Assembly: GCA_964572405.1 (NCBI GenBank)
Contig: CAZNGL010000001.1
Coordinates: 11,553-75,552, forward strand
Direction of reading: 5' to 3'
DNA from: an uncultured Bacteriovoracaceae bacterium
Lineage (GTDB): Bacteria > Desulfobacterota > Desulfomonilia > UBA1062
Length of the DNA: 64,000 nt
The position numbers and the translations under genes were made by a program. Shown piece by piece: positions 32,163 to 37,851 of this stretch. The notes beneath the pieces are model-generated. The model worked only from the letters and a program-made list of their open reading frames with translations, searched no databases and was not told the DNA's origin. Positions within the stretch are counted from its first letter, which is position 1. Every line of letters starts with the position of its first letter.

Positions 32163-32570
32163 CTAGCAGTTCATCAGGATCCGCTCGCCGTCTATCTTCA
32201 CGTCGTCGTTGGCCTGGACGTTCACGTTCCCGAGCTCCGCCGTGATGTTCTGGATGCGCGCCCGGGTGGTCAGATCGCCATCAACGCAGATGTGTGCGTC
32301 GCCCCCGCTGGTGAGAGCGATGCCGTCGCGGCCGTGGATGGCCAGGCTCTTCGCATTGATGGCCAGGTCCCCGTCGGTCCTGATCATGAGGCCCGTGCCC
32401 TCCAGGTGCAGCACCGGACCCTGATCTGTGACGGTGATGGTGAGGCTCACCCTGTTGTCCGCACCCGTGATCACGAGGCGGTCCTCCTGAGGGCCCTGGT
32501 CGATGAGGAGGTGTCGGTCTCCCCGGAGATCCACCACCTGGACCGCAGTCGTTGTGATATGGTCTTCCAT
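32163..32570 (-). CDS. Small beta-helix protein resembling the VgrG/gp5 C-terminal needle region (orphan spike-extension or PAAR-like cap candidate)
   Basis: 135 aa, directly downstream of vgrG (14-nt gap). Repetitive G/D/T-rich beta-strand pattern (LTITVTDQGPVLHLEGTGLMIRTDGDLAINAKSLAIHGRDGIALTSGGDAHICVDGDL). Ends ...ILMNC, as VgrG ends ...LIQNNC. Confidence 0.45.
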   Translation of the reverse strand: MEDHITTTAVQVVDLRGDRHLLIDQGPQEDRLVITGADNRVSLTITVTDQGPVLHLEGTGLMIRTDGDLAINAKSLAIHGRDGIALTSGGDAHICVDGDLTTRARIQNITAELGNVNVQANDDVKIDGERILMNC

Positions 32571-32584
32571 GTCCTGTCGCTCCT

Positions 32585-34738
32585 TCAGCAGTTGTTCTGG
32601 ATCAGCGTGCCTCTCAACTGGAGTATGCCGGCCGTTTCGAGGGTTATTCCGCTCGGCGCGATGAGTATGGACGAACCGCCCGCATCCAGGGTTATCGTCC
32701 CGCTCGGCGCCATGGTGATGGTGCCCGCCCCGCAGCTTATCTGGATCGAAGAGGTTCCTGTAATGATGACCTGATCCGCCGATGCGTCCATGACGCCCAG
32801 GGTCTTCAGGTTCAGGTTTGTGTCAGTCCGTATGAACCTGTTCCCGATGGCCTGCTCGTTGAAATCGGTCTCCACAACGGTGTTCTTGCACCCGGTGACC
32901 CTGGTGTTGTCGTCACCGCCGATTTCGCACTGACGCAGTGCGGAGACCGTCAGGCGGTCATCGCCATCGATCTCCACGCCCCTGCCGCCCTGGATGTTCT
33001 GGGCCTCTCCGTCCGTCACGGCCACGTTTCTTCCCTGCTCCACCCGGAGGGTCTCGCCTCCATGGATGGTCCGGGTGCAGCTGCCCGTCACCTCGATGGT
33101 CTCGTTGCCAGACACGTTCAGGCTCCGGTCGCCGCCCACACCCACCGAGTCGTTGGCGCCCACCGTGGCGCTCCGGTTGTTTCCCACCACGATGTTGTGG
33201 TCCTTCTGGGCGTGGATGAACACCTCCTCCTCGCCCTTCTTGTCCTCGAAGCGGATCTCGTTGAATCCGCCCCCGCCTATGCTCGACTCCGATTTGATGG
33301 TGCTCTTGGTCTTCTCGTCGGGCAGGGTGTACGGCGGGGTATGGGTGCCGTTGTACACGCTGCCGATGATGATCGGCCGGTCAGGATCGCCCTCGATGAA
33401 GCTCACGATGACCTCCTGGCCGATCCGCGGGAGCCACACGGCGCCCCACCCCATGCCCGCCCAGATCTGCCCGACCCGGATGAAGCACGTGGTGTTCTCG
33501 TCGTACTGGCCCTCCCGGTCCCAGTGGAACTGCACCTTCACCCGGGCGTGCTCATCGGTGTAGATCTCCTCGCCCTCGGGTCCGGTGACCAGGGCGGTCT
33601 GTACCCCCACGATGACGGGCTTGGGAGTGAGCAGCGGCGGCCTGAACGGGATGCTGTGCGGTATGCACACGAAGGTGTTCGTGTATGATGCCTCGGTGTC
33701 GCCGCCGCTGCCCGAAATGGGCTCGCTGGCGGCGTGGTTCAGCGCGGTGAGCACATAGGGGCGGTCGTTCATGTCGTCGCGGTGGTACTCTGCCAGGGTG
33801 AAACGGAAACCGCTGATGAACGCGCGGCAGTTGCTCGTGCCGGAGAGCACCGTGATCTGGGCCTCCTCGGCCTGCATGCGGAGGTTGGCGTACCGCTCGC
33901 CCTCGGACACGGTGAGGTACTCGCCGGGGTAGTCGTACAGCTCTCGTTCGCCCTGACCCACGGTAATGCTCGTGGGCACCTCCCACCTGAGGTCGGTGAG
34001 CGGCATGAGGAAGTTGAAGTCCTTGATGGTGTACTTGCCGAACCGTATCTCCTCCCCCCACCCGATGTTCTTGATCACGTCCTCGGTCTCGAGCGTGGTC
34101 TCGCCGGTGAGCTGGCAGCGGACCCTGTCCTGGTGGGGGCAGTCCTGGTGGACGTCGGCCGAGTCGGCCAGCACCAGCACGTGACGGCCGTCCTCGTGCT
34201 CGAAGAAGTAGAAGATACCCTCCTGCTCCAGGAGCCGGGAGATGAAGTTGAAGTCGCTCTCGTGGTACTGCACGCAGTACTCCTTGGGCTCGTAGGAACC
34301 TGAGAGCCGGAACTCGTAGTCCGCGAACTCCCTGTCAGCAAAGATCTGCTCTATGATCTGCTGCACGGTCTTTTCCTGGAAGATCCGGGAGTTCACGGTA
34401 CGGGTGAGCAGCCAGAACCAGGGCACCATGGTGGCGGAGTACGTGGCAATGTGCAGGTACTGCTCCTGGTCGGACCCCTCGCCGAGGCGCTCCTGGGAGA
34501 AGCGGCAGATGATGCCGTTGATGTACCTTCGCTCGTCGTCCGCCATGCCGAGGCATATCGTGACGCCCTGGCCGATGATGTCGCGGGGGTTGATGTTCGT
34601 GTCCTCGGATGCCAGCGTCAGCTCGAAGCTGAAGGGCTGGGAGATCCCTTCAGATCCCGTGAACCCGGTGAGCATGAGCACGTTCTCGCCCAGCGGGGTA
34701 GTGATGGAGAGAAGACGGTTTTCCTGTGTCAGTGTCAT
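32585..34738 (-). CDS. vgrG: Type VI secretion spike protein VgrG
   Basis: N-terminus MTLTQENRLLSITTPLGENVLMLTGFTGSEGISQPFSFELTL is canonical VgrG. 717 aa with gp27/gp5-like regions and a C-terminal beta-helix repeat. Confidence 0.9.
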   Translation of the reverse strand: MTLTQENRLLSITTPLGENVLMLTGFTGSEGISQPFSFELTLASEDTNINPRDIIGQGVTICLGMADDERRYINGIICRFSQERLGEGSDQEQYLHIATYSATMVPWFWLLTRTVNSRIFQEKTVQQIIEQIFADREFADYEFRLSGSYEPKEYCVQYHESDFNFISRLLEQEGIFYFFEHEDGRHVLVLADSADVHQDCPHQDRVRCQLTGETTLETEDVIKNIGWGEEIRFGKYTIKDFNFLMPLTDLRWEVPTSITVGQGERELYDYPGEYLTVSEGERYANLRMQAEEAQITVLSGTSNCRAFISGFRFTLAEYHRDDMNDRPYVLTALNHAASEPISGSGGDTEASYTNTFVCIPHSIPFRPPLLTPKPVIVGVQTALVTGPEGEEIYTDEHARVKVQFHWDREGQYDENTTCFIRVGQIWAGMGWGAVWLPRIGQEVIVSFIEGDPDRPIIIGSVYNGTHTPPYTLPDEKTKSTIKSESSIGGGGFNEIRFEDKKGEEEVFIHAQKDHNIVVGNNRSATVGANDSVGVGGDRSLNVSGNETIEVTGSCTRTIHGGETLRVEQGRNVAVTDGEAQNIQGGRGVEIDGDDRLTVSALRQCEIGGDDNTRVTGCKNTVVETDFNEQAIGNRFIRTDTNLNLKTLGVMDASADQVIITGTSSIQISCGAGTITMAPSGTITLDAGGSSILIAPSGITLETAGILQLRGTLIQNNC

Positions 34739-36867: not shown

Positions 36868-36888
36868 CTCTTCTCCCTCTCGATGTGT

Positions 36889-37851
36889 CTACCCCTCTGC
36901 AAAGAGCTCGCACGAGCGCCTCACCAGTGGCACGAGCACGTAGCGGAACGGGTAGCGGTAGGTGATGAAGGCCCTTCTCCTGTCCACCTCGACCCCGATC
37001 TGGTCAACGGCGGGTTCCCGGAAAACGATGTCCTTCCCGAAGCCCAGTTTCACCATGAGCCCCGAGGATGGCAGGGCAAACTCAACGGGGCCTGCAGCGC
37101 TCATGCCGGTGATCCGCATCCTGTCGCCCGCCTTTGCGGACGGGGCCACCATGTCCGGAAAGGCGGCATTGAACAGGGTGGGCCTCAGTTCGAGAAGGTC
37201 ACCGGTCTTCTCGTCAAAGACCACCGAGCGCTGCAGCCGGGGCCCGAAGGCCATGCCGCAGGGGGTGATGCCCACGGGATCGGGCCGGTCGTCCCATCGG
37301 CGGATGAGGTTCTTCGGGTCTTCGATGTTCGGCAGCTCCCTGCCAACGGCATTGGCTTCCTCCAGGTAGAACCCCTTGCCTGCCGGGTTCGCTGGGAACG
37401 GCACGGGCAGGCCGTCCCAGTCGTCCTTGCCGCCGTAGGCATACGCCAGGGTGAGCGGGATCTCCCGGAAGGGGTACGGCGGGCTCGGCACGAGTCCCCG
37501 CGACTCCTTCCTCCAGAGCCTGGGTCCGAAAACCTTGAGCGAGGTCCGGAAGGTATCACCGAGCTCCACGGTCACATCCATGCTGGTGACCTCTCCGCGC
37601 TCGGGCCGGGCCGAGCCGAAGGCGAAAAGATCCACCCCTCCCCGGTAGAACACCTCGTCCGAGTCCATGGGGCCGTACTCGCACTCCCAGGGCGGCGGGG
37701 AGACCTTCCACGTCTGCTCGGCGGACACCTTCAGCTCGGTTCCTACAATGTCGTAGGTCACCCGGCAGATCACCGCGCCGAAGAGCCTGTTCCCTTCAAT
37801 GCCGCCCCGGAATATCATGGCCGGGAACGGCGTGTGGTTCACCAGCTGCAT
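36889..37851 (-). CDS. DUF2169-family T6SS adaptor protein (paralog 1)
   Basis: N-terminus MQLVNHTPFPAMIFRG is the hallmark DUF2169 start. 320 aa. Confidence 0.75.
   Translation of the reverse strand: MQLVNHTPFPAMIFRGGIEGNRLFGAVICRVTYDIVGTELKVSAEQTWKVSPPPWECEYGPMDSDEVFYRGGVDLFAFGSARPERGEVTSMDVTVELGDTFRTSLKVFGPRLWRKESRGLVPSPPYPFREIPLTLAYAYGGKDDWDGLPVPFPANPAGKGFYLEEANAVGRELPNIEDPKNLIRRWDDRPDPVGITPCGMAFGPRLQRSVVFDEKTGDLLELRPTLFNAAFPDMVAPSAKAGDRMRITGMSAAGPVEFALPSSGLMVKLGFGKDIVFREPAVDQIGVEVDRRRAFITYRYPFRYVLVPLVRRSCELFAEG

Follow-up and report, generated by a model that had tools for sequence, protein, structure and literature searches.

A Five-Gene Module With Two DUF2169 Genes Beside a Complete T6SS Cluster

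The DNA analyzed here, a stretch of 64,000 nucleotides from an uncultured Bacteriovoracaceae bacterium (GenBank assembly GCA_964572405.1, contig CAZNGL010000001.1) that we refer to as the window, contains a module of five minus-strand genes spanning positions 32163-37851. In the order A1-X-A2-VgrG-small, these genes encode a first DUF2169 protein (A1), an unannotated protein that we call X, a second DUF2169 protein (A2), the VgrG spike of a type VI secretion system (T6SS), and a small protein (Table 1). The gaps between them measure 21, 30, 68, and 14 bp, and the GC content at third codon positions (GC3) of the five open reading frames (ORFs) is 0.81-0.89 (0.81 for X alone), a coding-type composition. 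These observations bear out the five genes recognized in the original prediction, a note that a model had made from the letters of the DNA alone.

The family assignments of that prediction also held up in profile searches. Both DUF2169 proteins were recognized by the Pfam model (PF09937) far above its cut-off of 25 bits, A1 with 178.3 bits (E 2.9e-52) and A2 with 177.0 bits (E 7.2e-52). VgrG matched Phage_GPD (8e-90), Phage_base_V (1e-13), Gp5_trimer_C (2e-30) and, weakly, DUF2345 in Pfam, as well as the NCBIfam model TIGR03361 (E 1e-191, 637.9 bits, cut-off 186); its beta-prism extends to the C-terminus, without an effector domain. The last gene had been described as encoding a beta-helix protein, and this nature was confirmed by the comparisons presented below.

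Table 1. Coordinates of the five genes of the module and of the two parts of protein X (positions in the window).
Feature	Positions	Strand	Basis
A1, DUF2169 protein, 320 aa	36889-37851	-	Pfam
X, 290 aa, unannotated	35995-36867	-	ORF with coding-type composition
X N-terminal domain, residues 1-145	36433-36867	-	Highest conservation within the X family
X C-terminal half, residues 146-290 and stop codon	35995-36432	-	Composition, hydropathy, predicted helices
A2, DUF2169 protein, 385 aa	34807-35964	-	Pfam
VgrG spike, 717 aa	32585-34738	-	Pfam, NCBIfam
Small protein, 135 aa, similar to the VgrG beta-prism tip	32163-32570	-	Ortholog profile against the PDB

A complete T6SS cluster lies on the same strand, from 41297 to approximately 62000, and includes the genes for TssJ, TssK, TssL, TssM, ImpE, TssA, TssB, TssC, Hcp, TssE, TssF, TssG, and ClpV. 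A six-frame scan of the 64 kb with hidden Markov models detected no other VgrG, canonical PAAR or DUF4150. The region is most likely the spike-assembly module of this neighboring T6SS and a variant form of the accessory systems built around DUF2169 ("Tvp").

The module contains no same-strand ORF for a small hydrophobic protein that could act as an immunity protein, and its tight gaps leave no space for one. The position of the antisense ORFs is not kept among orthologous loci. The absence of an immunity gene, which the original prediction had remarked on, was thus supported by the search for small unannotated ORFs. Two long ORFs were rejected: the minus-strand ORF immediately upstream of A1 (37883-39433) is spurious, the real gene there being a methyltransferase on the plus strand (37898-39421), and the plus-strand ORF 36230-36766 is not a real gene either. 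High-GC DNA yields many long spurious ORFs. Given the plus-strand methyltransferase gene upstream, the module constitutes its own transcription unit. A scan of the module for promoters and terminators gave counts that were not above those expected from shuffled sequence.

Gene Content and Gene Order Are Conserved Across Loci

We located the homologs of X on contigs and genomes and then mapped the five proteins of the window onto those loci. The five-gene set was found in at least 14 complete loci, distributed among deltaproteobacterial metagenome-assembled genomes (MAGs) and Planctomycetota, and every complete locus has all five genes. The linkage of DUF2169 with vgrG holds in all loci examined.

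Two gene orders were observed. The order of the window occurs in the deltaproteobacterial MAG loci L002 and L013-L016, with L013 sharing 96% identity with the window; L002 and L016 have the module directly after clpV, inside the core cluster. The order VgrG-small-A1-X-A2 occurs in Planctomycetota (Stieleria, Rhodopirellula, Phycisphaera, Pirellulaceae, and Fimbriiglobus), as well as in L001 and L004. Stieleria magnilauensis (NZ_CP036432.1) and Stieleria mannarensis are among the genomes that carry the module. The sub-blocks A1-X-A2 and VgrG-small are unbroken in all loci, so that the two orders are cyclic permutations of each other. The gene order of the window, which had been considered atypical, is therefore a conserved, lineage-specific arrangement and not an oddity; furthermore, VgrG is not encoded last, as had been stated, but fourth of five. 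Because the module lies inside or adjoining the core cluster and holds the only VgrG and the only tip candidate there, it is probably the default spike of this T6SS.

No conserved partner gene was found next to X or downstream of the module in approximately 17 loci. In the Rhodopirellula, Stieleria, and Phycisphaera loci L017-L020 (at ~12000-15900), a second vgrG is located approximately 1.7 kb downstream of the module, and in three of them (L018-L020) it is followed by a more divergent DUF2169-like gene with 26-29% identity to A1.

The N-Terminal Domain of X Is a Candidate Spike-Tip Domain

In the systems described so far, DUF2169 genes are strictly associated with vgrG and with a neighboring gene for a PAAR-like DUF4150 ("PIPY") protein, to which their ratio is close to 1:1 (PMC11883445). 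DUF2169 acts as the chaperone for the hydrophobic, P(I/V)P(Y/F)-bearing surface of the PIPY cone, and PIPY domains are described as having a hydrophobic core instead of a zinc site (PMC11883445). The DUF2169-loaded PAAR-like proteins that the original prediction invoked are the correct framework for this locus (PMC11883445, PMC13373197), and X occupies the gene position of DUF4150 beside DUF2169 in all loci.

Protein X showed no match to any known family in Pfam (E-values up to 10), NCBIfam, PHROGs or the sequences of the Protein Data Bank (PDB), with single sequences and with profiles. The DUF4150 model (PF13665) gave no match to X at E-values up to 10, matched one of 29 relatives at E 0.11, and matched none of 51 distant relatives. 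The homologs of X nevertheless form a large family, with 104 clusters at 90% identity, ~290-400 aa in length and aligned over their full length; an exhaustive profile search yielded 859 clusters at 50% identity, none with a usable Pfam annotation. One relative (P0020) carries the precomputed Pfam tag PF27507.1, which may denote a very recent family covering part of the X family.

The first ~145 residues represent the conserved core of the family. Among 146 relatives, Cys122 is present in all, His75 in 145, and His18 in 141; Pro34 is kept in 139, and position 35 is occupied by Tyr (101 relatives), His (38), or Phe (6). The PxPY motif reads PAPY in the X protein of the window (residues 32-35) and PVPY in the family consensus, which also includes G-K-P-[VI]-A-[VA]-A at residues 105-111. 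AlphaFold2 returned a confident beta-rich model for residues 1-150 with 40 sequences (predicted local distance difference test, pLDDT, 83.7; predicted template-modeling score, pTM, 0.75), and a poor one for full-length X with 29 sequences (pLDDT 47.6). A Foldseek search for the N-terminal domain found no match and no PAAR structure.

To compare X with canonical PAAR proteins by hhalign, we used an alignment of verified PF05488 members, with 100 column shuffles as the null. The N-terminal domain of X aligned with PAAR with a score of 20.1 (P 0.01), which was reached by none of the 100 shuffles (12.1 +/- 2.3), and the alignment was colinear over the three PAAR repeats. As a control, the accepted relationship between DUF4150 and PAAR gave a score of 20.6, reached by one of the 100 shuffles, and X against DUF4150 gave 16.4, reached by three. 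When the X profile was aligned with single DUF4150 sequences, only the stretch of the PIPY motif was aligned, without significance. In the alignment with PAAR, His18 of X pairs with the His of "DMH," Tyr/His35 with the His of "PIPH," and His75 with the Cys of "CVGPPD." In contrast to what is described for PIPY domains, the near-invariant His18, His75, and Cys122 suggest that X may retain a metal site.

A bridging case was found on a plasmid of Candidatus Methylocalor, where the genes for VgrG, two DUF2169 proteins, and a protein of 264 aa are followed by Rhs. Both ends of this protein matched X profiles (E 0.002-0.009, in a search with four sequences), and it also gave matches to PAAR models (PHROG 281, E 1e-3; Pfam PAAR_motif, E 0.035). 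Taken together, these comparisons make the N-terminal domain of X a candidate spike-tip domain of the PAAR superfamily.

The same plasmid (Candidatus Methylocalor cossyra, OZ026885.1, locus L006, 4800-13503) provides an independent instance of two DUF2169 genes side by side. They are both of the A2 type, score 327 bits against each other, and stand between vgrG and the gene for the 264-aa PAAR-like protein, which has a central hydrophobic segment and is followed by an Rhs toxin gene (DUF6531 and RHS repeats).

The C-Terminal Half of X Is Helical and Moderately Hydrophobic

The original prediction had noticed that the C-terminus of X is rich in Gly, Ala, and Asn with a GxxxG-like spacing. This was confirmed: the last 140 residues contain 26 Gly, 25 Ala, and 12 Asn, and runs of the type small-xxx-small-xxx-small start at residues 169, 173, 177, 247, and 251. 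Helices are predicted at 145-250 in the full-length AlphaFold2 model (pLDDT 60-80), and a motif, GFFxGGPMG, is conserved at residues 247-255, including Gly251, Pro253, and Gly255. The maximum Kyte-Doolittle hydropathy of the window protein over 19 residues is 1.28, a moderate value below the usual transmembrane threshold, and the corresponding maximum is above 1.6 in 22 of 96 relatives.

No known domain and no toxin family was matched by this half of the protein, and a profile search against the PDB gave a non-significant match to the transmembrane helices of an ABC exporter (E 0.2). X is homologous along its whole length in every relative, and an exchange of C-terminal domains is not seen. 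Of the proposed glycine-zipper effector, the helical and moderately hydrophobic character of the C-terminal half was sustained, whereas a clear transmembrane segment was not found in the window protein; an effector of this type is the less likely reading and is weighed below.

A1 and A2 Belong to Separate Ortholog Groups

Orthologs of A1, with 38-96% identity, are placed alike in 17 loci, invariably as the gene directly upstream of X, and orthologs of A2, with 41-92% identity across loci, always lie immediately downstream of it. The two proteins share 27% identity over 204 aa. BLAST scores within the A1 group and within the A2 group are 204-512 bits, in contrast with 27-56 bits for A1 against A2, a score that is lower than that of either protein against single-copy proteobacterial DUF2169 proteins. 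From these comparisons, A1 and A2 are two separate, deeply diverged ortholog groups; the score between them, being lower than those against the single-copy proteins, indicates that the duplication is ancient and that the copies are not interchangeable. A1 matched the DUF2169 crystal structure 8VTH by phmmer (E 1e-3) and A2 did not. Both proteins are putative TvpA-like chaperones.

The Small Protein Resembles the Tip of VgrG

The gene for the small protein had been described as an orphan. However, it is always immediately downstream of vgrG, and its product resembles the tip of VgrG. The 135-aa protein showed only sub-threshold matches to DUF3540 (23.5 bits, cut-off 27.9) and DUF2345, and the same was observed for all of 12 orthologs (best DUF3540 E 2.6e-5); no similarity was found when it was compared with a DUF6484 protein. 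A profile of the 12 orthologs matched the beta-prism of VgrG (PDB 8gra, residues 517-584 of 616, E 2.2e-5), as well as other contractile-injection spikes. Within the window, residues 58-135 of the small protein align end to end with residues 639-717 of its own VgrG, that is, with the last 79 residues. All the orthologs end in ANDDV-x-x-x-GER-[IV]-x-[MV]-NC and the cognate VgrGs in G-x-x-[IV]-x-x-N-[CSG], so that the ending G-x-x-[IV]-x-x-N-x is common to both. TvpC is a mimic of the VgrG tip that nucleates a pre-complex of PAAR and TvpA and is later replaced by VgrG (PMC13373197). The similarities described here suggest that the small protein is a TvpC-like mimic of the VgrG beta-prism tip, without the gp27 part.

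Comparison With Known Spike-Assembly Systems

The DUF2169/Tvp systems were characterized in 2025-2026, in Proteobacteria only, as three classes built around DUF4150 tips, usually with one chaperone per tip. Class I has TvpA only; Class II has a DUF6484 TvpC and a thiolase-like TvpD, as in Pseudomonas (PA0096/DUF6484, PA0097, PA0098, and Tse7); and Class III has a DUF3540 TvpC together with the pentapeptide-repeat proteins TvpAB and TvpB, as in Serratia (TvpAB, TvpB, TvpC/DUF3540, and Paar1) (Monlezun, Earl and Coulthurst 2026, PMC13373197). The module of the window shares with these systems a vgrG-linked set in which a DUF2169 (TvpA) protein is encoded beside a PAAR-like gene, a small protein whose gene directly follows vgrG and whose similarity to the VgrG beta-prism recalls TvpC, and a VgrG of ~700 aa whose C-terminus is all beta-prism; as in Serratia, the tip protein carries no classical toxin. 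In contrast, its tip gene is flanked by genes for two separate, deeply diverged DUF2169 proteins, its TvpC-like protein has only 135 aa, falls below the DUF3540 threshold, and is unrelated in sequence to DUF6484, X is not recognized as DUF4150 and has a helical extension of 145 aa, and the order of the module can begin with the chaperones instead of vgrG.

Judged by its gene content, the module would function like a Tvp system, but the published definitions of the three classes all exclude it. Class I is excluded by the presence of a TvpC-like gene and a second DUF2169, Class II by the lack of a DUF6484 TvpC and of a thiolase-like TvpD among the module proteins, and Class III by the lack of a pentapeptide-repeat TvpB or TvpAB fusion. 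The searchable text and supplement of PMC11883445 and PMC13373197 do not describe an arrangement with two DUF2169 genes, and the searchable part of the supplement of PMC13373197 names four non-proteobacterial species. For Planctomycetes, Myxococcota, and related groups, a search of the literature on DUF2169 returned no account of such modules.

The complexes of DUF2169 with PIPY domains (synteny type B, vgrG, DUF2169, DUF4150; Sachar et al. 2025, PMC11883445; structure 8VTH) provide a second point of comparison. As in these complexes, a DUF2169 gene is immediately upstream of the gene for the candidate tip, which has a P-[AV]-P-[YF] motif at ~30-45 residues from the N-terminus; the idea of a hydrophobic tip in need of a chaperone fits both, and the similarity of A1 to 8VTH is detectable. 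On the other hand, X fails the DUF4150 model and keeps the near-invariant His, His, and Cys, 38 of the 146 X relatives have P-H and not P-Y, as in canonical PAAR, and the ratio of DUF2169 to tip is 2:1 here versus the usual 1:1.

X can also be set against two further kinds of tip protein. The canonical PAAR-repeat proteins (PF05488) were reportedly described by Shneider and colleagues in 2013. With them, X shares the colinear elements D-x-H...P-G-x-P...P-[YH], I-P-H-x-G-P-P, and G-K-P-[VI]-A-x-A, and each third of the domain contributes one conserved His or Cys. It differs from them in that it has no match to the Pfam PAAR_motif and no detectable internal repeat, it is ~45 residues longer, and it is associated with DUF2169, which is rare for canonical PAAR. 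The Eag (DUF1795) chaperones are said to act with prePAAR effectors that carry transmembrane domains (reportedly the subject of work by Ahmad and colleagues in 2020). The concept of a PAAR-type tip with hydrophobic helices that are shielded by dedicated chaperones before loading onto VgrG is similar; however, the chaperone here is DUF2169 and not DUF1795, and the hydrophobic region of X is C-terminal to the cone instead of N-terminal, with no toxin domain after it.

A Model for the Module and the Alternatives to It

The reading that we favor, with some confidence, is that X is a structural, PAAR-like tip component and not a polymorphic toxin, within a spike-assembly module of the DUF2169/Tvp type. 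The proposed explanation for the lack of an immunity gene is that X has such a structural role. According to this model, the N-terminal 145 residues of X would fold into a PAAR-like cone on top of the VgrG trimer, possibly held together by a metal site of His18, His75, and Cys122, and the helical Gly/Ala-rich half would be carried on the tip, where it might aid membrane penetration. In the producing cell, the non-interchangeable chaperones A1 and A2 would shield the hydrophobic surfaces of X, one of them covering the surface of the cone that bears the PxPY motif and the other the C-terminal extension or the opposite face; the first of these roles is modeled on the DUF2169 protein shown with PIPY domains (PMC11883445). 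The 135-aa protein would trimerize into a short beta-prism that imitates the tip of VgrG and would nucleate a pre-complex with X, A1, and A2. VgrG would subsequently replace this decoy, and the chaperones would be left behind on firing.

Several observations weigh against this model. The PAAR, DUF4150, and DUF4280 models of Pfam, NCBIfam, and PHROGs failed to match X and the 80 relatives searched, apart from a trace in one relative, with E 0.11 to Tox-PAAR-like. The X protein of the window has NERIAAA where the family has GKP[VI]A[VA]A. The absolute hhalign probabilities are low (4% against PAAR and <1% against DUF4150), and the internal three-fold repeat, which was detected with 94% probability in the canonical PAAR control, is undetectable in X. 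The genome beyond the 64-kb window could hold a canonical PAAR gene, and we infer the division of labor between A1 and A2, the pre-complex, the metal binding, and the secretion.

The original prediction had left it undecided whether X is a spike accessory or a toxin. The evidence favors the accessory, given the full-length homology, the fact that X is the only tip candidate, and the lack of a partner gene; the toxin is the weaker of the two choices. As a toxin, X would be a specialized PAAR-like effector whose N-terminal domain docks on VgrG and whose Gly/Ala-rich half is membrane-active, pore-forming or depolarizing, with its immunity encoded elsewhere or unneeded against a target other than kin, such as a eukaryote. 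The helical C-terminal half with its small-xxx-small runs, the 22 relatives with hydropathy above 1.6, and the non-significant match to ABC-exporter helices are consistent with this possibility, as are the frequency of C-terminal toxins on PIPY/PAAR domains (PMC11883445) and the Serratia VgrG1-Paar1 spike, which has been linked to membrane depolarization although no classical toxin was identified (PMC13373197). Nevertheless, we consider it unlikely: there is no immunity candidate inside or adjoining the module in the window, and no partner gene is kept beside X in any of the ~17 loci; the C-terminal half is homologous throughout the family and not polymorphic; the hydropathy maximum of the window protein stays under the usual transmembrane threshold; and X, as the only tip candidate in the core cluster, suggests a housekeeping role.

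Less probable still is that X is not a tip protein but a lineage-specific adaptor or cargo held between the two DUF2169 proteins, with the true PAAR/PIPY protein encoded elsewhere. This idea draws on the failure of the PAAR and DUF4150 models to detect X, on the lack of a PAAR structure among the Foldseek results, on the undetected internal repeat, and on the 64 kb to which the visible part of the genome amounts. Against it, DUF2169 is tied approximately 1:1 to an adjacent PAAR-like gene in the published co-occurrence data, and X is in that position in all loci; its motifs are colinear with those of PAAR, with an hhalign score that is above every shuffle and equals that of the DUF4150-PAAR control; the Methylocalor protein bridges X to the PAAR models; and a gene for a decoy of the VgrG tip implies a tip-binding partner within the module. 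Finally, the arrangement could be taken for a chance juxtaposition or an annotation artifact, in which decayed or duplicated DUF2169 genes surround a spurious ORF, since long spurious ORFs such as the two rejected above are common in high-GC DNA. We give this practically no credence: X is conserved over its full length in the 104 and 859 clusters and has a coding-type GC3, synteny is fixed across phyla, and A1 and A2 are intact and separately conserved; this explanation is refuted by the conservation data.

Surroundings of the Module

Between clpV and the VgrG module, this lineage only has a pair of convergent, paralogous methyltransferase genes, at 37898-39421 on the plus strand and 39430-40956 on the minus strand, accompanied by genes for a DUF5086 protein (~41297-41750) and a protein with a weak helix-turn-helix (HTH) match (40985-41296). 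The two methyltransferases have ~507 aa each, are ~41% identical to each other, and share the domains MTS, DUF7059, and DUF7782. On the minus strand at 41758-43263, a gene encodes a 501-aa protein in which a VipA/TssB-like segment (residues 26-121) is fused to the N-terminal domain of VipB/TssC (residues 200-487), without the VipB_2 C-terminal domain. This fusion is additional to the canonical TssB (52411-52935) and TssC (50908-52398), and is kept in L013-L015; in L002 and L016, no such gene separates clpV from the module. The stretch of ~860 bp from clpV to the fused gene (43264-44124) contains no convincing ORF, and its GC content falls to ~0.60, versus ~0.65 elsewhere.

Downstream of the module, positions 27913-32149 form a regulatory neighborhood with a PP2C phosphatase gene (27913-28632), a gene for a 688-aa fusion of FHA and SLT lytic transglycosylase domains (28745-30811), and, on the plus strand, the gene for a double-FHA protein (31067-32149), which is convergent with the module across a gap of 13 bp. 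In L002, the module is followed by FHA, PP2C, and kinase genes, a set that resembles this neighborhood.

Implications

A more ambitious interpretation, which we advance tentatively and hold to be somewhat less than an even chance, is that the module represents a fourth architectural class of DUF2169/Tvp systems, widespread in Planctomycetota and deltaproteobacterial lineages. X would then be an evolutionary intermediate between PAAR, which binds zinc, and PIPY, which does not, with a His/His/Cys metal site, a PxP(Y/H) motif, and a conserved, membrane-active helical extension, and would need two non-redundant chaperones and a minimal decoy. If this were true, the dependence on DUF2169 would not be restricted to PIPY domains.

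The module is useful for annotation and for structural work on T6SS, and introduces no new principle. Our results suggest that, in Planctomycetota and delta-type lineages, DUF2169 has its tip partner in the large unannotated family of X. Confirmation of X as a PAAR-like cone with a metal site would widen the range of known T6SS spike tips and would explain many T6SS loci that seemingly have DUF2169 and no PAAR partner, and the module would then offer a natural system in which to ask about the role of the second chaperone.

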